A stretch of DNA of 64,000 nucleotides from the NCBI GenBank assembly GCA_963776345.1, contig CAVZMH010000001.1, forward strand, positions 96,001-160,000, read 5' to 3'. Under the pieces are notes generated by a model that saw nothing but the letters and a program-made list of their open reading frames with translations, was not told the DNA's origin and did not search any database. Both the position numbers and the translations under genes were made by a program. Position 1 is the first letter of the stretch; each line of letters starts with the position of its first letter. This DNA comes from an uncultured delta proteobacterium (GTDB lineage Bacteria; Myxococcota; Myxococcia; Myxococcales; Myxococcaceae). Positions 4,477 through 49,599 of the stretch are shown here, in pieces.

Positions 4477-5929
4477 ACGGCAGGTCGTTGCCCCGCGTCG
4501 GAAGCCGCGACGGCGCGCCGGTCAGCACCGAGTCGATGTCGCGCGCGGCCTCGCGCCCGTCGGAGATCGCCCAGACGATCAGGCTCGCGCCGCGCCGCGT
4601 GTCGCCCACCGCCCAGACGCCGGGCCGCGAGGTCCGGAAGCGGCCATCCACCCGGACGTTCCCGCGGGCGTCGAGCGCGAGCCCGAGCTGCGACTCGAGC
4701 GCCGCCGTCTCCGGCCCGAGGAAGCCCATCGCCAGGATGAGGAGGTCCACCTGGCGGGTCGTCTCCGAGCCGGCGACCGGCGCGATGCGGGTCCGGCCCG
4801 TCTCGTCGCGGTCCAGCCGCACCCGGGCCAGCTCCATCTCCGCCAGCCAGCCGTTCCGGCCGATGAGCCGGGTGGTGGAGAGCCCGAACTCCCGCTCTCC
4901 GCCTTCCTCCTGGCTCGACGAGGTCCGGAAGACCAGCGGCCAGTCCGGCCACCAGTTCCCGGTGGCGCGGGTCTGAGGTGGCGCCGGGAGCAGCTCGATC
5001 TGCTCGACGTGCGCCGCACCCTGGCGCAGCGAGGTGCCCAGACAGTCCGAGCCGGTGTCGCCGCCGCCGAGGATGACCACGTGCTTGTCCGCCGCGGAGA
5101 GCTCGGGCGGCAACGGGGCGCCGCCCACGTGGCGGTTCTGCGCCTCCAGGAAGTCCATGGCCCAGACCACGCCCGGAAGCTCGCGCCCGGGGACGACGAG
5201 GTCCCGGGGACGCCGCGCGCCGAGCGCCAGCACCACCGCGTCGTGCTCGGCCGCCAGCTGGTCGAATCCCGGGGCCGTGCCCACGTCCACCCCGCAGCGG
5301 AAGGTCACGCCCTCGGCCTCGAGCAGCGCCACCCGCCGCTCGACCAGCGACTTCTCCAGCTTGAAGTCGGGGATGCCGAAGCGGAGCAGCCCGCCCGGCG
5401 CCGGAGCCCGCTCGTACACGGTGACGGTGTGCCCCGCGCGGTTGAGCCCCGCCGCCGCGGCCAGGCCCGCCGGACCGCTCCCGACCACCGCCACCGTCTT
5501 GCCGGTCCTGGACGCCGGAGGACGCGGGCGCACCCAGCCCTCGCGGAACGCCCGGTCGGCGAGCTCCTTCTCGATCTGCTCGATGGTGACCGGCGCCTGG
5601 TCGATGGCCAGCACGCAGGCCGCCTCGCAGGGCGCGGGGCACAGCCGTCCGGTGAACTCGGGGAAGTCGTTGGTCGACGACAGCGTGGCCCAGGCCTCCT
5701 CCCAGCGCCCGCGCCAGACCAGGTCGTTGAAGTCGGGGATGAGGTTCCCCAGCGGACAGCCCTGGTGACAGAAGGGGATGCCGCAGTCCATGCAGCGCCC
5801 GGCCTGGCGCCGGCTCTGCTCGGTCGCCTGCGGGAGGATGAACTCCCGGGTGTCGTGCACCCGCTCCGACTTCGCGCGCTTGGGCGGCGCCTCGCGCTGC
5901 CACTCCAGAAATCCGGTGACCTTGCCCAT
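4460..5929 (-). CDS. gltD: Glutamate synthase small (beta) subunit
   Basis: MGKVTGF; CMDCGIPFCHQGCP; GRLCPAPCEAAC; GSGPAG; GGGDTGSDC; GDTRRGASLIVWAI. Confidence 0.95.
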   Translation of the reverse strand: MGKVTGFLEWQREAPPKRAKSERVHDTREFILPQATEQSRRQAGRCMDCGIPFCHQGCPLGNLIPDFNDLVWRGRWEEAWATLSSTNDFPEFTGRLCPAPCEAACVLAIDQAPVTIEQIEKELADRAFREGWVRPRPPASRTGKTVAVVGSGPAGLAAAAGLNRAGHTVTVYERAPAPGGLLRFGIPDFKLEKSLVERRVALLEAEGVTFRCGVDVGTAPGFDQLAAEHDAVVLALGARRPRDLVVPGRELPGVVWAMDFLEAQNRHVGGAPLPPELSAADKHVVILGGGDTGSDCLGTSLRQGAAHVEQIELLPAPPQTRATGNWWPDWPLVFRTSSSQEEGGEREFGLSTTRLIGRNGWLAEMELARVRLDRDETGRTRIAPVAGSETTRQVDLLILAMGFLGPETAALESQLGLALDARGNVRVDGRFRTSRPGVWAVGDTRRGASLIVWAISDGREAARDIDSVLTGAPSRLPTRGNDLPFTMTG

Positions 5930-11473: not shown

Positions 11474-13081
11474 TTACATGCTCAGCCGCAGGCCCACGCC
11501 CACGTCGAGGATGGGGGCGTTCAGCGGACCGAACACCGCGTCGACGTTCGAAGGGATCCCGCTCACCCCTGGCACCGAGGCCAGCGACTGGCGCGGGAAC
11601 CCCAGTCTCAGCTCGCCGCCCGTCCGCCCGAAGTGACCCGCGACGTAGCTCTCCACCGTCAGGTAGCTGAGCACCGTCACCACGAAGTCCAGCCGGGCGA
11701 GGTAGGTCCCGTCGCTCAGGTTGCCGATGCCCGAGAGGATCCACGTCGTCTTCGCGGTCGTGTCCAGCAGCGTGGCGCTGAGCGCCAGGTAGTGCTTGCC
11801 CACGTAGAACGGCTGGAATCCGCCGACCAGGAGCAGCGTCAGGTACTCGTCCCGGGAGTAGCTGGCCGAGTTGTAGAAGTACTCCCCTCCGAACGTGATG
11901 CTCTTGTTTCCCTCGAAGTTGAGCGAGTAGGTCACTCCGCCCGCCGCCTGGATGACCGGCGTGGAACGGGGGGGAATGGTCACCGTGACCTGGTTGGTGG
12001 TGGTGACCGTGGTGCCCGGAGGGACCCCGGGCACGAGCCCCGAGACGTCGACCGGGGTGCTGAGGGCGAACGTTCGGGTGGTCGGCGAATCCAGCCCGTT
12101 CTTCCAGGCCACCTCTCCGTAGAAATCGAGGTCGCCGAGCGCCATCGTCACGTCCGCCCCGAGCCGCGACGCGCGGTTCCGCTGCGCGAGCCCGTCCAGG
12201 CCGAAGGCGCCGTTCTTGAAGGCGAACTCCGCCCGGAAAGCGCCGCCCACGTCCTGGAGCGCGGTTCCGCTCGTCCCGGTGGGGTTGATGCCCGTGCCTC
12301 CGGGGTTCTCGACCGAGCCGCTCCCCGAGTACCCGCCACCGACGTTCTGCGTCGGCTCGAACACCGCGACGGCGCTGAAGTTCCAGCCCATCCTCTCCCA
12401 CGGCACCTGCGCCCGGATCATCGTCACCCCGAGCCGCGCGTCGAAGAGGGCCAGCGGATCCCGCGGCTGGCTGGCGAGGAAATCGGTGGGGGAGAAGAAC
12501 CGCGCCACGCCCCACTTCACGTGCTGGCGCCCCACGGTGACGAACACCGAGTGGGCGATGTCGAACCCGAGCCACGCCTGATCGAGCAGCACCGCCGGGT
12601 TGCTGGCGGTGGTCGACGCCGGGACACCCGGGAGCGCCGTGCCGCCCACCGTGGCCGAGAGGAACGGGTCGTAGGTCAGCCGGCCGAGGACGAACGCCCG
12701 GAGCCGCTCGGTCGGCCGGACATCCAGGTACGCGTCGACCAGCGTGGGCGCGGACATCCGTGACTCGCCGAACGGCTGGTCCTGGCTCACCTGGAGGAAG
12801 GCCCGGGTGTAGAAGAGCCCGCCGATCTTCAGCGGATCCTCCTGAACCCGCCCGCTGGCGAACGCATCCGAGGAGGGCGCCGCGTCGAGCCCACGGGACT
12901 CCTGTGCGCCGGCCGGGGTTCCGGCGTCGGGGGCACCTCCGAACAGCGACTCCTCGCTCGGTCGAGCTCGGACACCGGCGCCCGCGTCGGCCTTGCCGCG
13001 GAACAGCGCGTCCTCGTCCGGACGCTGGGCCCGGGCCGCGAGCGAGATCGCGAGTGCCGCCACGACGGCCCAGCGTCTCAT
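11474..13081 (-). CDS. Exported probable outer-membrane beta-barrel protein
   Basis: Signal peptide MRRWAVVAALAISLAARA; amphipathic beta strands; TVGRQHVKWG; C-terminal DVGVGLRLSM; ATGA overlap with upstream gene. Confidence 0.7.
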   Translation of the reverse strand: MRRWAVVAALAISLAARAQRPDEDALFRGKADAGAGVRARPSEESLFGGAPDAGTPAGAQESRGLDAAPSSDAFASGRVQEDPLKIGGLFYTRAFLQVSQDQPFGESRMSAPTLVDAYLDVRPTERLRAFVLGRLTYDPFLSATVGGTALPGVPASTTASNPAVLLDQAWLGFDIAHSVFVTVGRQHVKWGVARFFSPTDFLASQPRDPLALFDARLGVTMIRAQVPWERMGWNFSAVAVFEPTQNVGGGYSGSGSVENPGGTGINPTGTSGTALQDVGGAFRAEFAFKNGAFGLDGLAQRNRASRLGADVTMALGDLDFYGEVAWKNGLDSPTTRTFALSTPVDVSGLVPGVPPGTTVTTTNQVTVTIPPRSTPVIQAAGGVTYSLNFEGNKSITFGGEYFYNSASYSRDEYLTLLLVGGFQPFYVGKHYLALSATLLDTTAKTTWILSGIGNLSDGTYLARLDFVVTVLSYLTVESYVAGHFGRTGGELRLGFPRQSLASVPGVSGIPSNVDAVFGPLNAPILDVGVGLRLSM

Positions 13082-13863
13082 CGGCTCTTCGACTCCAGCC
13101 AGGCCTTGGTGAAGATGTTCGCCTCGAGTGGTCTGAGATCTACCGACTTCAGCACCACGATGGTGCTGTTCGCCTTCTCCACCTCGTCGTAGATGCGGAT
13201 CTCGCCCGGGTACCAGACGTCCGCTCCCTTCGATTCGCTGAAGAGCTTCTTCCAGCTCGGGTAGTACAGCGTCCGCATCAGCCGGCCGGAGAGCGCGAAC
13301 TCCTGCCGCTTGAGCACGTTGCCCGTCGCCTGGTCCACCCAGAGCTTCAGCACCGGGAAGGCCACGTCCACCCCGGGCTTCACCTTGGACTCGATGATCC
13401 AGGTGTCGAACGCGCCCAGCTTGGCCTCGCCGGTGAAGGCGGAGGTGTACTCCTCGGCCAGCCGCGACTCGTCGAAGTCCGCCCGGCGGCTGTCGGTGCC
13501 GGCGATGCGCTCGCGCTCGGTGCGGCGGTCCCACTTGCCGGTGGTGGGGTCGTAGCTCCAGAGGTTCTTCTCCAGCCGGAGATAGCCCTTGCCCGCCTCG
13601 CCCTTGGGCTTGGTGAAGAGGATCATCAGCTTCTCGTCTGCGCTGCGCCGGTAGACGATGGCCTCGCGGGCGGTGTCGGTCTTGTCCTTCTCCTTCTGCT
13701 CGAGGTACGCGAGCGAGCGGTAGTCGCCCGAGTTCCGCTGCCGGTCGTCGATGGTCTTCACCACCTCCCCCAGCTCGGCGGGGGCGAGGGCTTTCGCCCG
13801 CACCACCGTCCAGGGCAACAGGCTCACCAGCGCCAGGGCGAGGCGGAGCGTCGTGGTCCTCAT
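13078..13863 (-). CDS. LolA-like outer-membrane lipoprotein-sorting protein
   Basis: Signal peptide; FTKPKGEAGKGYL, NLWSYDP, IAGTDSRRADF, IFTKAWLE pattern typical of LolA_like proteins. Confidence 0.75.
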   Translation of the reverse strand: MRTTTLRLALALVSLLPWTVVRAKALAPAELGEVVKTIDDRQRNSGDYRSLAYLEQKEKDKTDTAREAIVYRRSADEKLMILFTKPKGEAGKGYLRLEKNLWSYDPTTGKWDRRTERERIAGTDSRRADFDESRLAEEYTSAFTGEAKLGAFDTWIIESKVKPGVDVAFPVLKLWVDQATGNVLKRQEFALSGRLMRTLYYPSWKKLFSESKGADVWYPGEIRIYDEVEKANSTIVVLKSVDLRPLEANIFTKAWLESKSR

Positions 13864-13875
13864 GTCATCTCCCTG

Positions 13876-15177
13876 TCACCCCACCCGGTGCATGGCCGTC
13901 ACCGGCTGCATGCGGGCGGCGAGGAAGGAGGGGAACAGCGCGATGAAGGTGGTGCACCCGGCGATGAGCGCGATGGCGCCCAGCACCGCGATGGGCCGGA
14001 CCAGGAGCCGGACCTCCTCGCGCATCAGGAACAGCTGCAGCGCCACCGGCGCGTGGATGTGCGCCGCGTTCAGCCCCGCGCAGATGGCCAGCCCCAGCGC
14101 CGCCCCGAGCAGGGTGGAGAGGAGCGAGAGGGTGAAGGCCTCGGTCATGAACATCGCCAGCACCCGGGCCCGCTGCATCCCGATGGCGCGCAGCGTGCCG
14201 ATCTCCCGCGTCCGCTCGCGGATGGCGATCCACAGGGTGTTCATCAGCCCCACCGCGATGATGACCAGGAGGATGCCGATCAGCGTATACGACAGCCAGG
14301 TGATGGCGGTGACGGTCCACTGGATGAAGGAGATCTCGTCCTCCCACGAGGTCACGTCCAGCTTCTGGCCCGTCCAGCCCTCGCGGTTGACCGACTGGAA
14401 CTTGAACCAGAAGGCGCGCGGGTCGGGGTCCATGATCTGGAACCCCGCGGCAGCGAGCACCGTCCGGAGCCGCTCCTGGACCCGCGGCACGTCGCGCACG
14501 TCCTTCAGGTAGAGGAAGAGCGCCCCGGTGGCGTCCTCGTTCATCTGGTAGAGCGCCCGGAGCGAGGACTCGGGCACGAAGGTGTTCCACGAGCTGAGCA
14601 GACCGACGTTCTTGGCGACCGCGGCGATGCGGACGTCGACGGTGTTCGCCGCGCCGCGCAGCGTGTACGCGCTGAGGGTCAGCTGGTCGCCCACCCGGAC
14701 CCCCAGCTTCTTCGCCTGCTCGTCGAAGATGAGGATGGTGTTGGGCTCGGAGAGCGCGTCCAGCGAGCCCTCCTGGACCTGGATCACCCGCCGGAACCCG
14801 GGCTCGTTCCTCACCTCGATGCCGCTGACGCCCGTCTGGAGCGAGCCGGTCTCGCTCACCAGCTTGGCCCAGCCCCGGCCGCGCTGGGTCACGTAGTCCA
14901 GCTCCGGGACCTCCTTGCGGATGACTTGAAGCACCTCGCGGTAGCGGGTCACCACCGGCGAGGCCTGCCCGGCCGTCACCTTGAAGAAGCCGCCCACGTT
15001 CACGTGGCCGGTGGTCAGGGTGGTCGCCGACTCGAGGATGGTGAACCGGATCCCGTTGAGGAGCCCCACCAGGAGCACCAGGAGCGCGGTGACGCCCACG
15101 ATGGCCCCACCGAGCAGCAGGGTGCGGCGGCCGTGGTGGACCAGGTTCCGGAAGGCGATGAGGAAGAGCTGGGCCAT
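13876..15177 (-). CDS. ABC transporter permease (FtsX/MacB/LolE-like)
   Basis: IAFRNL..RRT; TGHV; IRERTREIGTLRAIG; C-terminal TM + AARMQPVTAM. Confidence 0.88.
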   Translation of the reverse strand: MAQLFLIAFRNLVHHGRRTLLLGGAIVGVTALLVLLVGLLNGIRFTILESATTLTTGHVNVGGFFKVTAGQASPVVTRYREVLQVIRKEVPELDYVTQRGRGWAKLVSETGSLQTGVSGIEVRNEPGFRRVIQVQEGSLDALSEPNTILIFDEQAKKLGVRVGDQLTLSAYTLRGAANTVDVRIAAVAKNVGLLSSWNTFVPESSLRALYQMNEDATGALFLYLKDVRDVPRVQERLRTVLAAAGFQIMDPDPRAFWFKFQSVNREGWTGQKLDVTSWEDEISFIQWTVTAITWLSYTLIGILLVIIAVGLMNTLWIAIRERTREIGTLRAIGMQRARVLAMFMTEAFTLSLLSTLLGAALGLAICAGLNAAHIHAPVALQLFLMREEVRLLVRPIAVLGAIALIAGCTTFIALFPSFLAARMQPVTAMHRVG

Positions 15178-15182
15178 GGGCG

Positions 15183-17288
15183 TCACTCGTCCGTCTGCAT
15201 CGCGCGCACCGGCGGCACGCGGGTGGCCAGGAAGGCCGGGTAGAGGGTGGAGAGGGTGGTGACCACGATGACGATCACCAGCGCGGCGAGGATGTTGGTC
15301 CCGCTCAGGGTGGGGAACAGCCGCGGGCCGGAGAAGAAGAAGTACAGGGTCTCGTTCGCCGCGGCGATCCCCCTGGCGTGGAGCGCGGCCACCGTGGCCG
15401 AGCCGAGCAGCGCGCCGGCCCCGCCGAACACCAGCCCCAGGGTCAGCGTCTCGATGACCACCATCGCCAGGATGAAGCCGCGCTGCGCCCCGATGGCCCG
15501 CATCGTCCCCACCTCGGCGGTGCGCTGGAGGGTGGCCATCATCACCGCGTTGTTGATGATCACCATCGCCACCACGAAGATGATGCCCACCGCAAGGTAG
15601 AGCACCACCCGGGCCAGGAGGATGAACTGCCCGAGGAGCCCGGCCGCCTCGCGCCACGACACCACCCGCAGGCCCAGGTTCTCGCGGTCCGACAGCGCGC
15701 GCATCTCCTTCATCGTCTCCTGGATCTTCGTCGGGTCCTTGAGGATGACGGCGGCGTCCAGCACCACCCCCTGGCCGATCTCCTTCGGATCGTAGACGCG
15801 CTTGACCAGGTCCTCGTTCCGGAGCGCCTTCGCCGAGCCCTTGAAGTTCTCCTTCTCGTCGATGAGGCCCGGGGTCGCCTCGGCCACCAGGCGGTGGCTG
15901 GTGGAGCCGAAGAGCTCTTCCTCGGCCCGGCTCCGGTCGATGTCCCGGGTGCCAGCCTCCTTCTTGATGGCGTCGATCTCCGCCTTCTTGTCCGAGCTCA
16001 GGTAGCCGTACAGCTCGCGGAAGCTGACGATGTCCATGAGGTTGATGTTCCCGGAGAGCGCCGACTTCTCCAGCCCCTTGAACTGGAACGTCCCCCACAC
16101 CTTGAGGTTGAGGCTCTGCACGTAGCCGCTTCTCGTGAAGGCGGTGATGGTCAGCACGTCGCCCACCCGAAGCCGGTACAGCTCGAGCAGCGGCGCCAGG
16201 TCCCGATAGAACACGGTGTAGCGCTCGCGGAAGTTCCGGTCGTCGGTGTCGAAGAACTGGTTGAGCAGCGCGTCCAGGTCCTTGCTCGACGAGGCCAGCG
16301 TCCGCTGGAGGACTGCCACCGCCTTCTCGGTCCGGAGCCGGTCGAGCTGGAGGAGGATCTCCCGGGTCTGCGCCCGGTTCTCGCGCACGTACCGCTTGAG
16401 CGTCTCGTCCCCGGCGATCGTCCCCCCGGCGTCCAGCGCGTCCTTGATCTTGTCCAGCCGCCGCGCCGTCTTGAGCTTCAGCTGCTCCTCGTAGACGAAC
16501 TTCGACATCAGGAAGCCGCGGTGGCCCGGAGGCACGGGCTGGCCGTCGACGATCTGCATCCGGTCGAAGTTCTTCTGGAACGCTTCCAAATCCGTGCCGA
16601 CGTAGCGCAGGCCGATGAGGTCGGCGTCCGTGAGCTGGGGCGCCACCCGGTTCTCCAGGAACTCGAGCGCGCCGTACGGGTCCCTGTCGAACCCGGCCCA
16701 GAAGGCATCCGAGGACGCCCGCTCGATGGCCGCGCGGACCTCGGGCTCGAGCGCGCCGGCGGTGTTCATCTCGTTCACCCGGGCCAGGTCGGCCAGGAGC
16801 ACGCGGACGATCTGCCGGACGTGCTCCTTCAGCGAGTCGCGGCGGGCCTCGCGCTCGGGGGTGACGCCCTGCTCCTTCTCCTCACGGACGACGTCGCGCA
16901 GCTCCTCGAGCGTGAGGTCCACCGTGTTCCCGCTGGTGACCATCGCGGCGTTGATGCCCATGGGGATGACGGCCTTCACGTTGGGCACCTTCTCGAGCAG
17001 ACCCTGGGTCCGCTCCCAGTCGGTCATCGGGCTCAGGTCCGGGTCCGCGCCACCGGTGGGCCAGATGGCGAACTCGTCCTTGCTCCGGGCGCTGTACACC
17101 TGCACGTGCCCGGCGACGCTCCCGATGATGCTCCGGCTCATCGAGCTGACCACGCTGTCCAGCAGCGCGCCTCCGACGACGACCAGGAACGTGCCGCCGA
17201 GGATCACCGCCCCGATGAGGAGGTTGATCCGCGACCGGAAGAGGTTCCGGCCGGCGATGCGGAGGAGGATGCCCTCGCGCTCCAGCAC
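15183..17288 (-). CDS. ABC transporter permease (FtsX/MacB/LolC-like) with enlarged periplasmic domain
   Basis: IAGRNLFRSR; AGHVQV; LQRTAEVGTMRAIG; LYPAFLATRVPPVRAM; GTG start at 17288. Confidence 0.88.
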   Translation of the reverse strand: MLEREGILLRIAGRNLFRSRINLLIGAVILGGTFLVVVGGALLDSVVSSMSRSIIGSVAGHVQVYSARSKDEFAIWPTGGADPDLSPMTDWERTQGLLEKVPNVKAVIPMGINAAMVTSGNTVDLTLEELRDVVREEKEQGVTPEREARRDSLKEHVRQIVRVLLADLARVNEMNTAGALEPEVRAAIERASSDAFWAGFDRDPYGALEFLENRVAPQLTDADLIGLRYVGTDLEAFQKNFDRMQIVDGQPVPPGHRGFLMSKFVYEEQLKLKTARRLDKIKDALDAGGTIAGDETLKRYVRENRAQTREILLQLDRLRTEKAVAVLQRTLASSSKDLDALLNQFFDTDDRNFRERYTVFYRDLAPLLELYRLRVGDVLTITAFTRSGYVQSLNLKVWGTFQFKGLEKSALSGNINLMDIVSFRELYGYLSSDKKAEIDAIKKEAGTRDIDRSRAEEELFGSTSHRLVAEATPGLIDEKENFKGSAKALRNEDLVKRVYDPKEIGQGVVLDAAVILKDPTKIQETMKEMRALSDRENLGLRVVSWREAAGLLGQFILLARVVLYLAVGIIFVVAMVIINNAVMMATLQRTAEVGTMRAIGAQRGFILAMVVIETLTLGLVFGGAGALLGSATVAALHARGIAAANETLYFFFSGPRLFPTLSGTNILAALVIVIVVTTLSTLYPAFLATRVPPVRAMQTDE

Positions 17289-17290
17289 GG

Positions 17291-18013
17291 TCAGTGCCCT
17301 CCGGAGACGGCGATGGCGGCCGCCGCGGTCTCGCGCCCGACGATCTTCCCGTCTGCCAGCCTCACCACTCCGTCGGCGTGGGCCATCACCTTCGCGTCGT
17401 GGGTGGAGAAGATGAAGGTCGTCCCGTCGCGCTGGTTCATCTCCTTCATCAGATCGATGATCCGCTCGCCGGTGACCGAGTCGAGGTTCGCGGTGGGCTC
17501 GTCGGCGAGGACGATCTGCGGGCTCCCCACCAGCGCCCGCGCCACCGCCACGCGCTGCCGCTGCCCGCCGGACAGCTCGTTCGGACGGTGGCGGGCGTGG
17601 TCGGCGAGCCCCACCTGCTCGAGCAGGGTCATCACCCGCGCGCGCCGCTCGTGCCCCCGGAGCTTCCCCTGGAGCAGGAGCGGGAACTCCACGTTCTGGA
17701 ACACGCTGAGCACGCCCACCAGGTTGAAGCTCTGGAAGATGAAGCCGATGGTGTTCAGCCGGAGCTTGGTGAGCTCGCGCTCGCTCAGGGCCGCGGTGTC
17801 GTGCCCGGTGACGCGCACGGTCCCCCGGGTGGCCACGTCCACGCAGCCGATGAGGTTCAGGAGCGTGGTCTTCCCGCTGCCCGAGGGCCCGGCGATGGAG
17901 ATGAACTCGCCCGGGTACACGTCGAGCGACACGCCCCGGAGCGCCGGGACCACGGTCGACCCGAGCTGGTACTCCTTCACCACGTCGACGATGCTGACGA
18001 TCGGCTCGCTCAC
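17291..18013 (-). CDS. ABC transporter ATP-binding protein (LolD/MacB-like)
   Basis: GPSGSGKTT, LSGGQRQRVA, LADEPTANLD, FSTHD. Confidence 0.93.
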   Translation of the reverse strand: MSEPIVSIVDVVKEYQLGSTVVPALRGVSLDVYPGEFISIAGPSGSGKTTLLNLIGCVDVATRGTVRVTGHDTAALSERELTKLRLNTIGFIFQSFNLVGVLSVFQNVEFPLLLQGKLRGHERRARVMTLLEQVGLADHARHRPNELSGGQRQRVAVARALVGSPQIVLADEPTANLDSVTGERIIDLMKEMNQRDGTTFIFSTHDAKVMAHADGVVRLADGKIVGRETAAAAIAVSGGH

Positions 18014-18455
18014 GGTGCTCCTCGCGCCTGGGTCGAGCGGGGCCGCCCTGCCCGCAGGTCCGTGGACGGAGCGCGGGGGTTGGCAGCCCGGTCGGGCTCG
18101 GCACGGGCAGGGTGCTACCGGGCGCCACGTCGCGCGTCAACGAGAGCCGTGCGTTCCTGCCCTCACCGCCGCCGGAGCTGGGAGCACCGCTGGCGTGGTG
18201 TGAAGTTCGGTGAAGGCGCTCGAATGCGGTGTCGGGGGGCGGGCGCGCGGGCGATCGGCGTCTCGCCGCCGCAGCCGTCGACGGGCGCGGACCCGGGTCC
18301 CGCCGCGCGGTCGCCACCGCGGAGAGACGGAGCCCGGCGCGTGCCAGCGGCCCGGAGGGTCGTCGCCCTCCTCAGCTCGGGCATGTCCCCTGCACCGGGC
18401 GACACCCTGGACCCGGACCGCGGCTGGCCGCTCCCCCCGGGTCAGGAGGTGACAA

Positions 18456-19055
18456 GTGGAGACGCCCTGGACGTCGAGCCGACCGCGGGCGCGCATCCTC
18501 CCCGCCCCCATCCTGGAGGCCCGCGACGAGGCTCGGGAGCTCCTGACCGCCGCCGAGGCGCGCGCCGCCGAGCTGGTCGCCGAGGCGGAGCACCAGGCGG
18601 AGGCCATCCGCAGCGTGGCGTGCGACGCGGGCCGGGACGAGGGTCTGGCCTACGCGCAGCGTCTACTCTTGGAGATCCGTCAGGCGCGGCTCCGCGAGCT
18701 GGAGGGAGACGGGCTCCGCCGCACCGCGATCGAGCTGGCGCTGGCGATGACCCGGCGCGTGCTCGGAGAGTCGTGGAGCGCCGACCCGGGGACCTGGACC
18801 CGTGCCCTGCTCGAGGCCGCCGAGCCGCTTCGCCGGGCACGGGCCATCTCCCTGCGGGTGGCGCCGGCGAGCGCCCCGGCGGTCCGGGCAGCGCTCTCGG
18901 CCGAGCTCACCTCGGGCGCCATCGCGCTGGTCGAGGACGGCGCCGTCGACGAGGCTGGCTGCATCGCCGTCTCCGAGTGCGGCCGGGTGGACGGCCGGCT
19001 CTCGACGATGCTCGCCGCCTTCCGTGGACCGCTGGGCGTGGAGGACCCGAGGTGA
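18456..19055 (+). CDS. FliH/SctL(YscL)-like ATPase stator protein
   Basis: AxxxA helical repeats then GRDEG; C-terminal LRVAP...EDGAVDEAGCIAVSECGRVDGRL; GGAGG RBS; GTGA overlap with the ATPase gene. Confidence 0.78.
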   Translation: METPWTSSRPRARILPAPILEARDEARELLTAAEARAAELVAEAEHQAEAIRSVACDAGRDEGLAYAQRLLLEIRQARLRELEGDGLRRTAIELALAMTRRVLGESWSADPGTWTRALLEAAEPLRRARAISLRVAPASAPAVRAALSAELTSGAIALVEDGAVDEAGCIAVSECGRVDGRLSTMLAAFRGPLGVEDPR

Positions 19056-20347
19056 GCGCCACGGCGCTCCTCGAGGCGGTGCGCTCGGTGCCGCCGTTCC
19101 GCGTGACCGGCCGCGTGGAGCTGGTCCGGGGGCTCCTCCTCGAGGCCACCCTCCCGGGGGCGCGGGTGGGCGAGGTGGTGACCGTCACCGGCGCTCGCGC
19201 GCAGGTGCTCGCCGAGGTGGTGGGATTTGCCGGGGCGCGGGTGCAGCTGCTCCCGCTCGGCAGCGCCGCGGGCCTGGGCGAGGGCGCCGAGGTGGACTGC
19301 CGTGGCGAATCGCTCACCGTGGGTGTCGGGGAGGCGCTGGTGGGCCGGGTGCTCGACGGGCTCGGTCGTCCGCTCGATGGGCGTCCGCTCCCCACCGGAC
19401 TGCTGCGCTGGTCGGTCGACCGGCCCTGTCCCGAGCCGTTCCGTCGTGCCCGGGTCGACGTGCCTCTCCCGCTCGGCGTCAGGGCCATCGACGGGCCGTG
19501 CACCGTCGGCCGCGGGCAGCGGCTCGGTCTCTTCGCGGGCGCGGGGGTGGGGAAGTCCACCCTGCTCGGGCAGATGGCGCGGCAGACCCGGGCCGAGGTG
19601 ACGGTGGTGGCGCTGGTGGGCGAGCGGGGGCGCGAGCTGCGCGAGTTCGTGGAGGACGCGCTCGGCGCCGAAGGGCTGCGCCGGAGCGTGGTGGTGTGCG
19701 CGACGTCGGACGAGCCGGCGCTGGTCCGGCTTCGGGCAGGCTTCGTGGCCACCGCCATCGCCGAGTGGTTCCGCGAGCAGGGCGGCAACGTGCTCTTCCT
19801 GCTCGACTCGGTGACCCGGCTGGCCCGTGCGCAGCGCGAGGTGGGGCTCGCAGCGGGAGAGCCGCCCGCGCGCCAGGGCTATCCGCCCTCCGTCTTCTCG
19901 ATGCTCCCCAGGCTGCTGGAGCGGACCGGGAACTCGGCCCGCGGCTACTGCACCGCGCTCTACACCTGCCTGGTGGCGGGCGACGATCTCGAGGATCCGA
20001 TCGCCGACGAGGTCCGGGGCATCCTCGACGGCCACGTGGTGCTCGACCGACGCATCGCCGAGCGCGGGCGCTGGCCGGCGGTGGACGTGCTGGCCTCGCT
20101 CTCCCGGGTGATGCCGCAGGTCACCTCGGAGGAGCACCGGCGGCTCGCGTCGCGGCTCCGGGCGCTGCTCGCCGCCCACGAGCAGCGGCGGGACCTCATC
20201 CTCCTCGGGGCCTACGCTCCGGGGACGGACGCGCTGACCGACGAGGCCATCGCTCGCCGGCCGGCGCTCGAGGCGTTCCTCGCCCAGGGGCGGGACGAGC
20301 CTGCCGGCGCGCTGCTGGAGCGGCTCCGGGAGGCGGTCGAAGGATGA
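19052..20347 (+). CDS. FliI/SctN(YscN) family export ATPase
   Basis: GRGQRLGLFAGAGVGKST, LVGERGRE, DSVTR, GEPPARQGYPP, ILDGHVVLDR, SLSRVM, LGAY. Confidence 0.93.
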   Translation: MSATALLEAVRSVPPFRVTGRVELVRGLLLEATLPGARVGEVVTVTGARAQVLAEVVGFAGARVQLLPLGSAAGLGEGAEVDCRGESLTVGVGEALVGRVLDGLGRPLDGRPLPTGLLRWSVDRPCPEPFRRARVDVPLPLGVRAIDGPCTVGRGQRLGLFAGAGVGKSTLLGQMARQTRAEVTVVALVGERGRELREFVEDALGAEGLRRSVVVCATSDEPALVRLRAGFVATAIAEWFREQGGNVLFLLDSVTRLARAQREVGLAAGEPPARQGYPPSVFSMLPRLLERTGNSARGYCTALYTCLVAGDDLEDPIADEVRGILDGHVVLDRRIAERGRWPAVDVLASLSRVMPQVTSEEHRRLASRLRALLAAHEQRRDLILLGAYAPGTDALTDEAIARRPALEAFLAQGRDEPAGALLERLREAVEG

Positions 20348-21177
20348 GCGGTCTGGGGACGCTCCGGCGGCTCAGGAGGGACGCCCGCGACGCCGCGCAG
20401 GAGGCGTTCGCGCGGCGACTCTCGGAGCTTCGCCTGGCCGAGGAGCTCCTCCGGAGGGCGACCGCGCGCTGGGAGTCGCAGCGAGGCCGGTGCTCCGATC
20501 GCGCGGAGGCGCGGCTCTCGGTCCTCGAAGGCGGCGGGGTGGCCGGGCGCGCGGTGCTCCACGCCCGTCACGAGGCACGGCTCCGGGGTGAGCTCGAGGT
20601 CCTCGCCTTCGGGCGCGACGTGGCACGACGGGCGCTCGCGGCTCGGTCGAGTGGAGCGGACGAGGCGCGGGACACGCTGGGGCGGGCGGAGGCCACCCTG
20701 GCGGTGCTGGAGCGGCTGCTCGAGCGCCGGGAGCGGGAGGCGTGGCACCGGCGGCTCCGGCGCGAGGAACGGCTACTCGAGGAGCACGCCTCCGGCGCAC
20801 TGGATGTCGGCGCAACACCGCGCGGTCCGGACGTCCGCCTGAACAACGCCGGCAGACTGGTCGAGCTTCGTCTCGCTTCGGCACGAGTAGCGTGCGCGCC
20901 CGCCAGGTCGTCAAGCGTAGGCAACGCGGATCACGTTGACGTGTTCCGCGGGGAGCCTGCTCCAGAGCACGCGATGTCGGAACACGCCCCGGAGCCACGA
21001 TGCCTCGACGTCCTCTGCCGTCTCGACATCGTCGCGGAACGTCGGCAGTGCTCGAGGACTCGGCAGCGCGTAACTCGGGGAGACTCGCGCGGCGCCCGAG
21101 CATCCTTCTCGACCTATCCCGCCAGGCCCTTCTGCACACCTTGTCGGTGCCAGCGCAGCGCGTCCCGGCGACGATGA
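20344..21177 (+). CDS. FliJ/SctO-like coiled-coil stalk protein (first ~150 aa) with doubtful C-terminal extension
   Basis: ATGA overlap with the ATPase; LGTLRRLR start, long R/E/A coiled coil ending REERLLEE; position matches SctL-SctN-SctO order. Confidence 0.6.
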   Translation: MSGLGTLRRLRRDARDAAQEAFARRLSELRLAEELLRRATARWESQRGRCSDRAEARLSVLEGGGVAGRAVLHARHEARLRGELEVLAFGRDVARRALAARSSGADEARDTLGRAEATLAVLERLLERREREAWHRRLRREERLLEEHASGALDVGATPRGPDVRLNNAGRLVELRLASARVACAPARSSSVGNADHVDVFRGEPAPEHAMSEHAPEPRCLDVLCRLDIVAERRQCSRTRQRVTRGDSRGARASFSTYPARPFCTPCRCQRSASRRR

Positions 21178-21253
21178 GGCTCAGCCCAGGCAGAACAGCT
21201 TTCCCGCGACCGTGATTGGCACCTGCTCCCTCGTCGCGCGGGCAGTTTCCCGC

Positions 21254-21745
21254 TCAGGCCGACCGCAGCACGCCCGCCCGGAGCGGCGCGAGGTAGTTCA
21301 GGCTGCTCGTCGCCAGCGCGGCGCCGATCGCGAGGTTCACCATCCCCCGCCAGAGCGGGGGCACGCCGGCCAGCGTGAGCCCGATGCTGAGCGCGGTCAT
21401 CAGTCCGATGACCACCCAGCTCCGGGTCCCGTAGACGTGGATCGGCCGGCGCTCCTCGGTGAGTGCGGTGAGCCGGTCGATGTTCCGCCGGGCGGTCTTC
21501 CGGAGAAGAAACCGGCCCTTGGCGACGCCGATCGCCAGCGCCGCCGCCGCGACGGCCACCACGAGGCCGGGAGCAGCAGGTCCCCGCGCCGCCTGGAGGA
21601 GCCGGCCCGTTCCCAGTGAAAGGAGCACCGCGCCGCCCAGGAGCCACAGCCCGAACGCCAGCCACCCGAGCCAGCGGGGCGCGAGCCTGACGGGCAACGC
21701 CAGCAGCAGCACGGCGATGACCGGCATGATCGGCAGCGCGGGCAA
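21254..21745 (-). CDS. Hypothetical 4-TM membrane protein
   Basis: Hydrophobic segments, LWLLGG..L..G, GVAKGRFLL; immediately downstream of rho. Confidence 0.6.
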   Translation of the reverse strand: MPALPIMPVIAVLLLALPVRLAPRWLGWLAFGLWLLGGAVLLSLGTGRLLQAARGPAAPGLVVAVAAAALAIGVAKGRFLLRKTARRNIDRLTALTEERRPIHVYGTRSWVVIGLMTALSIGLTLAGVPPLWRGMVNLAIGAALATSSLNYLAPLRAGVLRSA

Positions 21746-21763: not shown

Positions 21764-23278
<1,515 letters not shown>

Positions 23279-23471: not shown

Positions 23472-25946
23472 TCACTGGAGCCGCAGCTCGAACGGCAGCG
23501 CGGCCTTCATCCCCGGCTCGAGCAGGAACAGCGACGGGACGCCGACCTCCCGGGCCATCCGCTGCAACGCATCGGGCTCCGGGGCGGCACGCTCGGCGCC
23601 GACGCCGAGCTGGGTGAGCACCCCGCTCTCCCCGGCGAGCGCGGCCAGCAGGCCCGTCGGGCCGCCGTAGGTGACCAGCGCCAGCTCCTCGCCCTCCGGC
23701 ACGCCCGCGCGGCGCCGCGCCTCGGCGACCGCCTCGGGGAGGCCGCCGAGCGCGTCGACCAGGCCCCGCGCCCGTGCGTCCTCTCCGGACCAGATGCGTC
23801 CGCGCGCCACCGCATCCACCTGCGCCGGGTCCATCTTCCGGCTGCGCGCCACCTCCTGGACGAAGTCGTCGTAGAACGCGTCCACCCACCGCTGCGCGGC
23901 GGCCTGCTCGGCCGGGGTCCACGGCCGGTAGAGCCCCAGGATGTCGGAGAGCGGCCCACGCTTGAGCGTCTCGACGTTCACCCCGAGCTTCTTCCCCAGC
24001 CCCTCGAGCCCCGGCTTGAGCACGAAGACGCCGATGCTCCCGGTGAGCGTGGTGGGCTCGGCGAAGACCCAGTCCGCGCCCATCGCCGCGTAGTAGCCGC
24101 CCGACGCCGCCGCCCCGCCCATCGTCGCCACCACCGGCTTCCTCGCCCGGGCGCGGAGCACGGCCCGGTACATGATGTCGGAGGCGAGCCCGTCCCCGCC
24201 GCCGCTGTCGATCCGGACCACGATCGCGGCCACACGGGGATCCGACTCGGCGTCGCGCAGCGCGCGCTCGATGGTCTCCGCGCCCGCAGACTGCGAGAAG
24301 CCGAGCGGATCGCTCCGGCTCCGTCCCCCGGTGATCGAGCCCACGATCGGCACCACCGCGATGCGCCGCGGCTCTCCCCAGCGGCGCTCCGGGGCGGCGG
24401 GCCAGTACGCGCCAACCCAGCGGCCGTCCGGCACCAGCGCCGCGCCGGCCCGGTCGAGCTGCACCGGGTCCATCACCTCGTCGGCCAGCTTCTCGCGAAC
24501 GGCCGTGCGCGGCGGCAGGAGCCCCTCCTCGAGCACCTTGCGGAAGCGCTCCACGGGGAGCCCGCGCGCCTCGGCGACCAGGCCCTCGTACCGGCGGGAC
24601 TCGACGTCGAGGAAGGCGTCGAGCGACTCGCGCTGCTCGCGGCTCATGCTCGCCCGGGTGAGCTGGTCGGGCGCGTCCTTGTACTCGCCCACCCGGGCGA
24701 CGTCCCACTTCACGCCGAGCTTCTGCATCGTCTCGCCGAGGAAGATGACGTTCGCCGAGAGCCCGTTCACGTCCAGGAAGGACTGGGGCGAGACCCAGAT
24801 GCGGTCCGCGCCGGTGGCCACCAGGTACTCCTTGTCCCCGCCCGAGAGGAGCATCGCCGCGACGCGCTTGCCGGCCTTGCGCAGCCGGATGAGCTCGGCG
24901 CGGAGCTCCTCGGCCTCGGCCATGCCGATGGGCAGCCGCTCGATCTTCACCACCAGGCCGGCGAGCGTCCGGTCCTCGGAGGCCCGCTGGAGGCGGCGGA
25001 GCAGCTTCACGTACGGGTCCTCGTCGCGGATGCCGAGCAGCCCGAGGGCCGAGCCGCCGCCGGCGAGCGCCGAGGCGAGGTCGACCAGGCCGACTCGCCC
25101 GCCGAACAGCTCGACGCCCCGGTAGCGGGAGGCGGAGACCCGGGCGGAGACCAGGTGATCGGTGCCGTCCGGACCTCCGCCGACGGCGTAGCCGACGCCG
25201 GCGTACGCGCCGTTGAGGGTGAGCGACACCTGCCAGAACCACGGCTCGCCGGCCTCGCGCCAGCTCTTGGTGACCGAGGTCCCGAGCACCACGCCGCGCA
25301 CCAGCTCGGCCTGGACCACGGCGCCCACCCGGCTCTCGCCAAGGGTGTCGAACCCCGGGAACTGCCAGTTCGCGCCCAGGGTCAGCCAGTCGCCCCAGGG
25401 CCGCACGCCAAAGGCCAGCTCCCAGGTGCGAGACTGCGCCTCGTCGCCGATGTCCTTCAGCGCGAAGCCGAGCGACAGCGTCCGGCTCGGTCGGCTGGAG
25501 AGCCCGAGGTCCCAGGTGTTCGGTCCGGGCGCGGTGCCGAGGTTCGGGGTGTAGACGTTGAAGCTGCTCCCCAGGGCCAGCCACTGGCCGCCGACGGAGG
25601 CGGTGTACGAGGTCTTGCGGTAGCCGCTGCGCTCCGAGCCGGCGTATGGCCCGCGCACCCAGTCCAGCCCGACGCCGAAGCCGAACCAGTCGAAGAAGGT
25701 GCTGCCGAAGTACAGGCCGTCCACGATCGAGTCGAGGTGGAGGTTCCGCTCGTGCTGGTAGACGAGCATCGGGCCGCCCACGAACTGGAGCCCGGCAGGG
25801 TTCACCTCCGGGGCGGTCACCTCGTCGGCGAGCGCGGCGTTGGTGGGCGGGAGCGTGGGACGGAGCTCGCCGATGGCCGAAGCCTGGGCCCGGGCGAGCG
25901 CTGGGAGGAGGAGCAGGACGAGCGCGGTGGAGCGAGTCACGCCCAC
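23472..25946 (-). CDS. sppA: Signal peptide peptidase SppA (S49) with N-terminal beta-rich domain
   Basis: GEYKDAP (Lys), RIDSGGG, AASGGYY (Ser), TGSIGV, GRIWSG; N-terminal signal peptide and ~330-aa beta-strand region with NPAGL. Confidence 0.88.
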
Positions 25947-34913: not shown

Positions 34914-36578
<1,665 letters not shown>

Positions 36579-36647: not shown

Positions 36648-37604
36648 TCAGCGGCCCGGTCTCAGGCTCGGCTTTCCGAGATAGCCGGTGAGCTTCGCGT
36701 TGCGGTACGCCGAGTCGGCCGGATCGACCGGGAGCTGGGTGAAGCCCGCGGCGATCATCCCCATGCGCCGGAGGAAGTCGGCCGTGGGGCGTATGCGGAG
36801 CACGATGTCCGGCTCGAAGTAGGGCAGCGCCCGGGCGAGCCGCAGCGTCCCCGACGCCTGGATGTCCAGCTCGGGGCCCTCGATCCGGAGCGCCTTCAGA
36901 GTGCCGGTGCCCCGCTCGATGGGAAGCTCGGCGTCGAGCTTCCCGAAGTTGACCGGTGGCAGATCCACCGGAGTCATCTGGCCCATCAGGGGCACGGTCA
37001 CCGTCCCCCCCTTCACTTCCAGGCCGCTGCCGGAGAGCCGCAGCCTGCCGGAGGCGTGCGAGAGGTCGGGCTGGCCACTCCCCGGGCCGCTGGTGGGGAT
37101 GTCGAGCGACAGCTCTCCGTCGAGCGTGCCCACCGCGTCCACGCCGGTGAGCGCGGCCACCCCGGCCTTGCTCAGCGACAGGTGGTCGAAGTGCACCCGC
37201 AGCCGCGGGGCGCTGCCGGCGCCGATGGCCCCGCCCGCATCGCCGCCGAAGAGAGATGCCGAGAAGCCCACCCCCCAGGGGAAGATCGAGGGCCGCAGCG
37301 TCAGCCGGTCCACCCGCACCGTCTGATCCGGCGGCCCGAGCCCGTCGGGCCGCTGCCCCACCCGCACGCCCCGGGCGCTCACCCCGAGGAACGCCGGGCC
37401 CATCGAATCGATGCGCACCCAGAGCCCGGCGGCGTCCGCCTCGGCGGCGATCCGGGCCCGGACCGCGTCGTACGGGAAGGTGAGCGCGAGGAAGAGCGAG
37501 AAGAGGAACACCCCCACGCCTACCCAGGCCGCGGTGCGCTGCCAGCCGACGAGCGGTGGCGTCCTCCAGGCGCGCAAGCGCTCGGTCAGCTCGGTGAGCT
37601 GCAT
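36648..37604 (-). CDS. gspN: Type II secretion protein N (deltaproteobacterial type)
   Basis: N-terminal TM then TFPYD, beta-rich body; last gene of the gsp operon. Confidence 0.75.
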   Translation of the reverse strand: MQLTELTERLRAWRTPPLVGWQRTAAWVGVGVFLFSLFLALTFPYDAVRARIAAEADAAGLWVRIDSMGPAFLGVSARGVRVGQRPDGLGPPDQTVRVDRLTLRPSIFPWGVGFSASLFGGDAGGAIGAGSAPRLRVHFDHLSLSKAGVAALTGVDAVGTLDGELSLDIPTSGPGSGQPDLSHASGRLRLSGSGLEVKGGTVTVPLMGQMTPVDLPPVNFGKLDAELPIERGTGTLKALRIEGPELDIQASGTLRLARALPYFEPDIVLRIRPTADFLRRMGMIAAGFTQLPVDPADSAYRNAKLTGYLGKPSLRPGR

Positions 37605-38170
37605 CAGGGCGCCGCCTTCAGCCGGTACGCGGTGACCGTGGTCCAGGCGGTGAGCACACCGTCCTTGGGCCTCGGCTCGATGCGCAGGAAGGTGACCCGC
37701 ACCACGCCCGGACCCTGCTCCAGCGAACCGAGGAAGTCCACCAGCCTGGGGAGGGCAACGTCGGTGAGCGTGAGCTCCACGCTGTTCTCGACGATGCGTC
37801 CGTCGCCGACCGGGATCTCGCCCTTGGGGTTGAGCGAGGGGATCTCCAGACCCACCTGCTTCCCCTTCTCCGCCACGTAGGTGATGAGGCTCACCTCGCT
37901 GGCGGTGAGTGCCGCCTCCGCCTGCTTTCGGACACGCTCGGCCTCGGCGTACCCGGCGGCGAGCTGCTCGGCCTCGGCGAGGCGCTGCAGCTTGCTCTGG
38001 GTGCGGCGCCGGGTGGCGTCGGCCGAGGAGGAGAGAAGGAAGAGCACCAGGAAGGTCACCACCACCAGGGTGGCCCCGCCGGCGGCGCTCACCATCACCC
38101 GCTCGCGCGCGCTGAGCTTCAGGTACCAGGCCTGGAGGTCGCCCCAGAGAAGCCTGAGCCGCTCCATCAT
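37604..38170 (-). CDS. gspM: Type II secretion protein M
   Basis: LSARERVMV + TM, coiled coil, LVDFLGSLE; position after gspL. Confidence 0.8.
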   Translation of the reverse strand: MMERLRLLWGDLQAWYLKLSARERVMVSAAGGATLVVVTFLVLFLLSSSADATRRRTQSKLQRLAEAEQLAAGYAEAERVRKQAEAALTASEVSLITYVAEKGKQVGLEIPSLNPKGEIPVGDGRIVENSVELTLTDVALPRLVDFLGSLEQGPGVVRVTFLRIEPRPKDGVLTAWTTVTAYRLKAAP

Positions 38171-39744: not shown

Positions 39745-40988
39745 CAGTCCGCCCTCCAGTACAGCACCCGCCCGAGGCCGTCCTGCTGCGGATCGGCGAG
39801 GCGGATCACCGCGGTCACCCGCCGCTCCACGTCCCCGGCCTGCCCGGTGGCCACGATGCGGAAGGTGTCGCTCTTGTCCCCGAGGAAGCTGTTGGCGGTG
39901 GTTCCGCCCACGCCCTGCCGCTGCGTCACCTGTGGGTTCACCCCGATGCCCGCCGACTGCACGATGGCGGTGAAGTCCTGCACCGAGAACCCCATCGGCA
40001 TCATCGCCTTGGCGGCGCGGATCTTCTGCACGATGCCGTCGAGGAAGATCGGGTCGTTGAGGCGCGGGTCCGGACGGGACGGATCTCCGATGCTCCGGAT
40101 CGCCAGGGCGATGAGCAGCGGGTCGTCGCTGTTCACGTTCAGGGGCGCGTTGGCATCCGGATAGACGGTGAGGCGGTCGGCGAAGGCGGCCATGAAGCGG
40201 TCGGTCACCCCGTTGACCAGGTACAGCTCCCCCAGCGAGTCGAACCAGGCGTTCTTCGGCCGGTACCGCGGCGTGTAGCGCGAGTAGAGCGCCGCCTCGT
40301 CCGAGAAGCCGGTCTGCAGCGCGACCTGTCCCAGCGCGGTCACGTTGAGCGCGGACTGGGTGTCGTCGTCGTCGACCCAGTCCTTGAGCGCGAGGAGCAC
40401 GTCGTTCGGGGTGGCGCGAACGTGGTTGGCGTCCTCGCGGTCGAAGACGAAGTCGAACCGCTTGTCGGAGACCAGGTTGTAGAGGCGCTGCACCGCGCCC
40501 TGGGCGCTGCCGGTCTGCAGGCCGGCCATGGCGTTGACGTTGAGCTTCTCCTGCTCGTCCTCGATACGGGCGTCGAAGCAGCCGGCGAAGCCGCCGTACT
40601 GGATGCGCCCCTGGTCGTCGAGCCCACCGGCGCCGGCGGTGGAGAACTTCGGGCGCCGGCCCGCGCCGGCCTGCGGCACCACCGTCTGGAGGAGGTGGCA
40701 GTCGAGCCGGGCCATCCGCCAGAGCTGGAGGTTGATCCCCGACAGTCCGCCGGGGAGCGCGCCCATGCTCCGGTCCAGCTGCTTCTGGAAGAGCAGGAGC
40801 ATGCGGGCCAGGCCCACGCTGCTCTTCGCCAGGTACTCGGCGCGGAGGCCGTCGCGCTGGTGGGTGGCCAATTCCAGATCCACCCGGGTCTGGAAGGCGA
40901 ACTCCGCCGCCACCGCGGTGAGGATGGCGATGGAGACGGTGACCATGAGGAGCGTGACGCCGCGCTGTGCTCGAGCAGGCCGTCGCAT
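39744..40988 (-). CDS. gspK: Type II secretion minor pseudopilin K
   Basis: QRGVTLLMV (no E5), IEDEQEKLNVN, DWVDDD, PKNAWFDSLGELYLVNG, LNVN, VLYWR. Confidence 0.88.
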   Translation of the reverse strand: MRRPARAQRGVTLLMVTVSIAILTAVAAEFAFQTRVDLELATHQRDGLRAEYLAKSSVGLARMLLLFQKQLDRSMGALPGGLSGINLQLWRMARLDCHLLQTVVPQAGAGRRPKFSTAGAGGLDDQGRIQYGGFAGCFDARIEDEQEKLNVNAMAGLQTGSAQGAVQRLYNLVSDKRFDFVFDREDANHVRATPNDVLLALKDWVDDDDTQSALNVTALGQVALQTGFSDEAALYSRYTPRYRPKNAWFDSLGELYLVNGVTDRFMAAFADRLTVYPDANAPLNVNSDDPLLIALAIRSIGDPSRPDPRLNDPIFLDGIVQKIRAAKAMMPMGFSVQDFTAIVQSAGIGVNPQVTQRQGVGGTTANSFLGDKSDTFRIVATGQAGDVERRVTAVIRLADPQQDGLGRVLYWRAD

Positions 40989-43274: not shown

Positions 43275-43283
43275 GGCTTCACC

Positions 43284-45135: not shown

Positions 45136-45141
45136 CGGACG

Positions 45142-46899: not shown

Positions 46900-46909
46900 G
46901 ACGGGTTGG

Positions 46910-49597: not shown

Positions 49598-49599
49598 GG

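Follow-up and report, generated by a model that had tools for sequence, protein, structure and literature searches.

A lone SctL-SctN-SctO ATPase module in an uncultured Myxococcaceae genome is the likely partner of an ATPase-less type III export gate on another contig

Why should the ATPase module of a secretion system of type III (T3SS) stand alone, with no secretion machinery around it? The question is raised by a 64,000-nucleotide stretch of contig C1 from an uncultured member of the Myxococcaceae (genome G000; 5.1 Mb, 72% G+C, 24 contigs, 98.4% complete). This stretch, G000:C1:96001-160000, is referred to here as the window. It encodes a stator, an ATPase, and a stalk gene (sctL, sctN, and sctO; the triad) between an ABC transporter operon and a rho gene, flanks that an earlier reading of the sequence alone had named correctly. 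The sequence-only reading took the triad for an orphan with no export apparatus, either a detached part of a needle-less T3SS-like system or a free-standing unfoldase serving another machine. Our analysis points to the former. With a probability of roughly 0.8, the triad is the sole type III ATPase module of G000 and likely powers, in trans, the single ATPase-less export gate of the genome, which is encoded on another contig. The best reading of the whole is a dispersed "Myxo"-type needle-less non-flagellar T3SS (NF-T3SS).

Open reading frames (ORFs) were called with a crude script based on GC3 (G+C content at third codon positions), so start codons are approximate. The three genes of the triad are as follows.

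18456-19055, plus strand: sctL, a fliH-like stator gene (199 amino acids [aa]; PF02108, 7.1e-11)
19052-20347, plus strand: sctN, a FliI/YscN-family ATPase gene (431 aa; TIGR01026, 531.6 bits)
20344-21177, plus strand: putative sctO, a yscO-like stalk gene (open frame of 277 aa; conserved part ~20344-20790, 150 aa)

The GTG start of sctN overlaps the sctL stop codon as GTGA, and the ATG start of sctO overlaps the sctN stop codon as ATGA. Three coupled FliH/SctL-, FliI/SctN-, and FliJ/SctO-like genes on one strand are thus confirmed at this site. SctL passes the cutoff of the FliH model PF02108 (42.6 bits; cutoff, 24.1), is 70 to 73% identical to the copies of the same genus, and can be aligned with SctL of G046, G116, and family f7. 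SctN exceeds the cutoff of the FliI/YscN model TIGR01026 (379.5 bits), stays below that of the narrower equivalog TIGR02546 (561.7 bits; cutoff, 604.75), and carries the T3SS_ATPase_C domain (PF18269, 5.9e-21). It matches F1 alpha and beta models too, more weakly, and the closest solved structure is a T3SS ATPase (9.7e-118). The motifs AGAGVGKS, GERGRE (residue 190), and LFLLDS (residue 248), which we take to be the P-loop, the catalytic Glu box, and Walker B, are intact, as had been noted earlier, and align with those of the solved T3SS ATPase. Across the whole G000 genome, SctN of the window is the only FliI/YscN match above the TIGR01026 cutoff.

The third ORF has no Pfam match, and its sole family match is to TIGR02473 FliJ (E value of 0.005). 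BLASTP gave no significant alignment of this protein with the YscO-like proteins of G046 and G053; the third genes of the lone triads in those two genomes match PF16789 at 9.9e-30 and 1.8e-21, respectively. When a profile of five same-genus SctO proteins plus that of G116 was compared by hhalign with a profile of six YscO-like proteins, including PF16789 members from neighboring genera, the probability was 92.5% (E value of 4.8e-07, 145 columns). Structure prediction yields a hairpin of two helices, at residues 3 to 60 and 65 to 151 (predicted local distance difference test score, 78.7). Foldseek found no match to this model in the PDB, and a wide fold search returned generic coiled coils alone (axonemal proteins, an antifreeze protein, and FlgN; Z scores up to 8.9), so the fold is compatible with the YscO/FliJ family yet not diagnostic of it. 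On these profile comparisons we call the third gene a putative, strongly diverged sctO, with a caveat that is taken up below.

The T3SS genes of G000 were located by six-frame profile searches over all contigs. The genome has one FHIPEP (sctV) gene, at C19:210858-212882, in an operon that encodes, in order, SctQ (FliMN_C), FliO, FliP, Bac_export_3, Bac_export_1, Bac_export_2, and FHIPEP, that is, sctQ-fliO-sctR-S-T-U-V. The sole YscJ/FliF gene (sctJ) of G000 lies on the same contig, 17 kb upstream of the sctQ operon, and is preceded by two small genes, one of which is homologous to the SctI-like gene of a long T3SS cluster in G017. An NPTH motif is retained in SctU of C19, and a lipobox is present in SctJ. 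The gate locus contains no sctL, sctN, or sctO. Among the 48 other ORFs called in the window, none matches a T3SS gate, ring, or flagellar family at an E value of ≤1e-4; the sequence-only reading was right that the 64 kb holds no other T3SS or flagellar gene, FHIPEP and YscJ/FliF being found on C19 only. The description of the triad as an orphan without an export apparatus nonetheless has to be abandoned, because a T3SS locus lacking just these three genes, which the sequence-only reading had itself named as grounds for refutation, exists elsewhere in the genome; the same locus supports the idea of a detached part of such a system.

In G000 the gate locus is itself interrupted. A 17-kb block on the opposite strand (C19:189660-206687) separates sctJ from sctQ (L017, L010, and L013) and carries genes for a cytochrome c-like protein, SCO1/SenC, a LolA-like protein, two multicopper-oxidase-like proteins, a multiheme cytochrome, and a 2,542-aa Big_9/cadherin-like protein. 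This split was seen in G000 only. The gate locus of G007 is contiguous, and SctN and SctV are encoded 298 kb apart on one contig there. We considered and rejected an abutment of C1 and C19 that would make the two G000 loci adjacent: the triad lies >114 kb from the ends of C1, and sctV lies >160 kb from the ends of C19.

The SctJ ORF of G000 (L017:16461-17660) is 399 aa long. SctJ has ~250 to 270 aa and is accompanied by a separate ORF of 88 to 157 aa in G007, G017, G021, G025, G046, and family f7. By its length, the G000 protein looks like a fusion or frameshift of SctJ and the small ORF.

The complete genomes G017 and G021, which are Myxococcus-like, carry three genes for SctV but two for SctN, and their loci provide a frame for the two halves found in G000. 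Locus A consists of two small genes, sctJ, a small ORF, sctQ, fliO, and sctR, -S, -T, -U, and -V, followed by HU and BrkB genes; it has no sctL, sctN, or sctO. Locus B of G017 encodes TPR chaperone-like, SctI-like, SctJ, FliG-like, SctL, SctN, YscO-like, and SctP-like proteins and continues with a FliM/N-type SctQ, FliO, and SctRSTUV. Locus C, which is more distantly related and includes an ATPase gene, occurs in G003 and G010, two genomes from the genus of the window, and is absent from G000. The C19 locus is the orthologue of locus A, both by the SctV tree (A clade, 99*, apart from B and C, in a quick tree) and by HU/BrkB synteny. sctL, sctN, and sctO are absent from all nine A-type loci fetched (G000, G007, G017, G021, G025, G030, G036, G046, and G116), and beyond sctV an HU gene is found in 8 and a BrkB gene in 7 of the nine.

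Our same-genus sample comprised 12 genomes besides G000. An SctN orthologue (84 to 93% identity) is present in 11 of these 12, the one without it being 66% complete, and an A-type SctV is likewise present in 11, the exception being 68% complete; no B-type SctV occurs in any of the 13 same-genus genomes. In a wider sample of 41 genomes, all 19 genomes that are ≥90% complete and have an A or B gate contain exactly one SctN (≥60% identity). A family survey covered 151 genomes of ≥90% completeness (G074, flagged as unpublished, entered that count alone). SctV is present in 144 of them, and the 7 family genomes without SctV are all without a T3SS ATPase as well, their best matches being ATP-synthase-like proteins at 35 to 37% identity. 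Single-gate family genomes have one SctN in nine of nine cases. Within genus g56, G116 has both the gate and the triad and five other genomes have neither. No case of a triad without a gate was found among genomes ≥90% complete. Gate and ATPase module therefore travel together, and each genome has a single Myxo-type SctN module, irrespective of whether it has one Myxo-type gate or two. Family f7 (G030 and G036) repeats the arrangement of G000, with a coupled lone sctL-sctN-sctO and an ATPase-less A locus.

These counts bear directly on the suggestion of a free-standing, F1-like unfoldase or chaperone-release module that works for a non-T3SS machine, such as the type II secretion system (T2SS) encoded 16 kb away or a type IV pilus. 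The separation of triad and gate (298 kb in G007, different contigs in G000) and the presence of a T2SS cluster at 36651-50490 in the same window would suit such a role, and the long stem branch of SctN in this genus (0.33 to 0.43) could reflect a change of partner. However, the G000 gate lacks exactly SctL, SctN, and SctO; gate and ATPase are kept or lost together, as in the seven gate-less genomes and in the co-loss within g56; no genome ≥90% complete has the triad only; and no alternative partner is syntenic with the triad, since the genes between sctO and rho vary between genera. We give the unfoldase explanation a quite small chance of being right, and the earlier suggestion to this effect is not supported.

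How the two halves would work together can be proposed from textbook roles of the families. Flagellar FliH-FliI-FliJ and the stator, hexamer, and stalk of F1/V1 ATPases share the three-part architecture and gene order of the triad. By these roles, SctL dimers would hold a hexamer of SctN against the SctQ platform beneath the A-type gate, the central stalk contacting SctV would be formed by SctO, and ATP hydrolysis would release chaperones and feed substrates into the SctRSTUV channel. Profile searches of G000 for the SctF needle (PF09392) gave a best E value of 1.0, and the flagellar rod family PF00460 had no match in G000 and did match in control genomes. Neither of the two secretins of G000 is dedicated to a T3SS: GspD belongs to the T2SS cluster and PilQ to pilMNOPQ. 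A machine that has neither a needle nor a secretin of its own would deliver its substrates no farther than the inner membrane or the periplasm.

The site of the triad connects it to locus B. The genes that flank it, none of which belongs to a T3SS, are as follows.

13078-13863, minus strand: LolA-like gene of the left flanking operon (Pfam match)
13876-15186 and 15183-17288, minus strand: FtsX/MacB-type permease genes of the left flanking operon (Pfam matches)
17291-18013, minus strand: ABC ATPase gene of the left flanking operon (Pfam match)
21254-21745, minus strand: gene for a 163-aa membrane protein, right neighbor (Pfam match)
21764-23278, minus strand: rho paralog, right neighbor (Pfam match)
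23472-25946, minus strand: S49 peptidase gene, a far-side synteny marker with orthologues beyond sctV of locus B

The whole divergent ABC/FtsX/LolA-like operon (13078-18013, minus strand) is a conserved left neighbor. The lone triad is immediately preceded by an FtsX-ABC pair in L018, L019, G007, G010, G046, and G116, and the rho paralog lies downstream in these six and in G053, whose upstream flank is cut off. The order ABC, sctL-sctN-sctO, rho thus recurs in seven other genomes or contigs from four genera, a conserved layout of long standing. In G017, G071, and L022, the same FtsX-ABC pair immediately precedes the full locus B; among six further locus-B stretches, three do not reach this flank and three cover at least 2 kb without the pair. 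On the far side, an S49 peptidase orthologue lies 13 kb (G017) or 18 kb (G021) past sctV of the full locus B. Because the S49 and FtsX-ABC flanks are common to both, the triad occupies the locus-B site. The genes between sctO and rho differ among genera.

SctN of the window falls inside a Myxococcota NF-T3SS clade (support, 100/99, in the more careful tree) that adjoins a small clade of other NF-T3SS ATPases, apart from flagellar FliI. Locus-B ATPases, those of families f2 and f4 included, form a monophyletic clade in the SctN tree (100/99), below which the lone triads branch in the order g56 with the present genus, g40, and g33. A quick SctV tree, in which long branches were flagged, places the split between A and B before the divergence of f1 to f7. 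If descent was vertical, this order favors repeated loss of the B gate around sctL-sctN-sctO over a later build-up of locus B, on tree shape, without deciding between the two.

The triad is under purifying selection. The ratio of nonsynonymous to synonymous substitutions (dN/dS) was calculated by the Nei-Gojobori method for the window genes and the C19 gate genes against G007, G010, L018, and L019, with the following results.

SctN: 0.09-0.135
SctL: 0.25-0.38
SctO: 0.23-0.25
rho paralog: 0.10-0.14
ABC ATPase: 0.09-0.175
C19 gate genes: 0.11-0.28
SctJ: 0.42

SctN is as constrained as rho, and values near 1, which the sequence-only reading had named as a sign of decay, were not seen in the triad (0.09 to 0.38).

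The 3′ end of sctO is peculiar to G000, where one further feature has to be added.

20787-21263, no strand: genome-specific stretch in place of 104 intergenic bp of G007 (~370 extra bp)

By blastn against G007, G010, L019, and the whole genome, this stretch is single copy in G000. sctO of relatives stops at 143 to 157 aa; the G000 frame stays open through the insert to 21177, and GC3 falls from ~0.9 to ~0.7 beyond 20800. The end at 20800 that had been given earlier for the module agrees with the conserved portion of the third gene but not with its open frame, and the frame past that portion may not be meaningful protein. L018 carries a 5.5-kb insertion at the same spot.

Could the triad then be a decaying, functionless relic of a lost locus-B-type cluster? 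The rest of such a cluster is missing at the site, the sctO stop codon is lost in G000, and SctL and SctO are far diverged from the family models, all of which a relic would explain. It would not explain dN/dS values of 0.09 to 0.38 with SctN constrained like rho, nor intact frames and ATPase motifs with the start/stop overlaps preserved, nor the presence of the triad in 11 of 12 other same-genus genomes and three further genera. We find the relic explanation hardly credible.

Other results weigh against the triad as the engine of the C19 gate, or against parts of that account. SctL scores 50.2 bits against the NCBIfam SctL equivalog TIGR02499, below its cutoff of 78.7. SctO is recognizable through profile-profile comparison only, and a first hhalign run of SctO against YscO-like proteins, with thin profiles, gave a probability of 5.6%. 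The insert in G000 has removed the sctO stop codon seen in relatives, so that the normal stop is lost. As to the history, approximately unbiased (AU) tests rejected both a grouping of the ATPases of the genus with those of the family's locus B (P = 0.0035) and one clade uniting every lone triad (P = 0.0026), both groups having been named after the trees had been seen. A search of the intergenic DNA around lone triads for locus-B pseudogene remnants returned noise alone (all E values >0.04). The sequencing runs listed are DNA runs from soil, peat, and wetland metagenomes, with no RNA run among them. Finally, flagellar-type gates can export without their ATPase, so co-retention is no strict proof that the gate depends on the ATPase.

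This last point leads to another explanation, in which proton-motive force is all that drives the A-type gate and the triad is kept for a regulatory or chaperone role in the same pathway, without docking. It would fit the ATPase-independent export known from flagella, and no A-type locus encodes an ATPase, not even in genomes whose only Myxo-type SctN belongs to another cluster. Against it, the present genus, G046, G116, and G036 offer the triad no other gate, yet the triad is strongly constrained. We regard it as unlikely and retain the reading in which the triad powers the gate in trans.

The arrangement can be compared with systems described previously. The "Myxo" NF-T3SS of Abby and Rocha (2012; PMC3459982), according to the part of that study available to us, has no secretin and no needle, comprises a gate, an ATPase, SctJ, and an inner rod, and occurs in all Cystobacterineae. 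The system of G000 resembles it in having no secretin, needle, or flagellar rod genes, in combining a gate and an ATPase with a small inner ring SctJ and an inner-rod-like gene, and in its vertical conservation. It differs in that the ATPase module lies at least hundreds of kilobases from the gate, at the site of the long cluster of other genera, and in that the genus of G000 is uncultured and outside that study. A supplementary table of the same study attaches the suffix "-s" to Anaeromyxobacter and one Myxococcus xanthus system and "-a" to others; "-s" may mean scattered. Core genes of a working NF-T3SS are spread over several loci in Chlamydiales too, as summarized in that part of PMC3459982. 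Unlike the system of G000, the chlamydial one has a secretin and a needle, injects host cells, and belongs to a different phylogenetic family.

Two clusters are known in M. xanthus. T3SS* (mxan_2434-2464) works with the Tad-like Kil apparatus and includes SctD, according to the available parts of two reviews (Herrou 2025, PMC12075869, and Kaimer 2023, PMC10433427). Locus B is probably T3SS*, since the position of the G021 locus fits mxan_24xx. SctN of the window is 62 to 66% identical to SctN of this cluster type, the gene order L-N-O is the same, and both flanks are shared, the ABC operon as well as the S49 peptidase gene. T3SS* is a single large cluster that includes a gate and accessory genes, whereas the window site has sctL, sctN, and sctO alone, and G000 has no B-type SctV, its one FHIPEP being of the A type. 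The Tad/Kil marker RcpC/CpaB (PF16976), the only Kil marker searched, had no match in G000, G007, or G010, three genomes of the genus, and six and four matches in the Myxococcus-like genomes G017 and G021, respectively. On this marker, a partnership with Kil appears unlikely in this genus, and the link to the Kil apparatus that had been drawn earlier finds no support. The second M. xanthus cluster, T3SS(2), has 12 genes (MXAN_5643-5654) and is not needed for prey killing, as stated in the available parts of Wang 2023 (PMC10196010) and of PMC12403147. From the gene count (11 to 12 genes here and in G017), we infer that the A-type locus corresponds to T3SS(2). The portions of the published accounts that were available, which do not include Thiery 2022, contain no statement that T3SS(2) is without an ATPase or has one in common with T3SS*. 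The G000 system is further distinguished from a flagellum by the absence of a PF00460 rod gene and by an SctN clade that is not flagellar (flagellin and Mot were not searched) and from an injectisome by the absence of a dedicated secretin SctC and a needle SctF (translocon genes were not searched).

What appears to be new is that one ATPase module serving an ATPase-less gate may be all that remains of a T3SS*-type cluster in several genera. We extend this, tentatively and with less than even confidence, to the Myxococcaceae at large: one SctL-SctN-SctO may be the engine common to two paralogous needle-less gates, the second T3SS, which would never have owned an ATPase, borrowing that of T3SS*, and T3SS* may have been cut down to the engine, more than once, in several small-genome lineages without Kil, since the second gate would need the engine. 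If so, M. xanthus mutants in sctN or the whole T3SS* cluster would also disable the second system, and that system would have a conserved role independent of Kil and predation; phenotypes of T3SS* ATPase mutants in Myxococcus may then mix two systems. The apparent ATPase without a machine is removed as an oddity, and the locus becomes a natural experiment on the myxobacterial needle-less T3SS, in which only the ATPase module remains where the predation-linked cluster is absent. It offers a testable reason to think that the second myxobacterial T3SS, a poorly studied one, is functional and ATPase dependent. Secretion-system callers that consider single loci would report both halves here as incomplete.

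Upstream of the triad lies a candidate promoter element.

18379-18394, plus strand: candidate sigma-54-type -24/-12 element, GGGCAT-N5-CTGCA, ~62 nt before the sctL start

Of the 11 consensus positions, 8 are matched. A 9/11 match occurs at the same distance in G007, G010, L018, and L019 and nearer the start in G116; none was found upstream of the G046 triad. The chance level in the window, counted on both strands (128 kb), is 37 matches of ≥8/11 and 2 matches of ≥9/11. A promoter function of this putative element is a lead only. A scan of 17900-21400 for sigma-70 promoters and terminators found nothing. A second sigma-54-like element (TGGCCC-N5-CTCGCA, 9/11) lies ~16 nt before the called sctQ start in G000 (C19; L013, ~4656-4671) and at the same place in G007 (L103); either the sctQ start is miscalled or the match is due to chance.

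In family f7, the triad (L136 and L138) lies between rpoC plus a 246-aa sigma-70-family gene (regions 2 to 4) on one side and RNase D on the other, and the adjoining sigma factor may be a regulator of the triad. Locus B is broken in L143 (G025, family f2), where the stretch ends past sctN and a different contig carries the B-type sctV; in L142 (G039, family f4), a gene on the opposite strand lies between sctN and sctO. T3SS loci of this group seem prone to rearrangement. Locus C, as seen in L146 (G010:C140) and G003:C149, has its own SctL-SctN, SctQ, SctR, SctU, and SctV, and its SctN groups with a Myxococcales metagenome-assembled genome, apart from the Myxo clade.

The rho paralog of the window has a long N terminus rich in Pro, Ala, Gly, and Asp and a weak match to the Rho RNA-binding domain, and it is 82 to 94% identical across genera. 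A second rho gene of G000 (C19; L011:10551-12143), with Rho_N and Rho_RNA_bind domains, lies 8 kb past sctV, so each T3SS piece has a rho-like neighbor. By family matches of the called ORFs, the remaining content of the window consists of housekeeping genes and the T2SS cluster (36651-50490, minus strand). The latter looks complete, with GspC, -D, -E, -F, and -G, pseudopilins, GspK, a PilM-like GspL, and GspM. Sigma-54 activator genes border it at 34914-36578 (this one with FHA domains) and at 50685-52067; farther on, at 57897-58283, is a PilZ gene.

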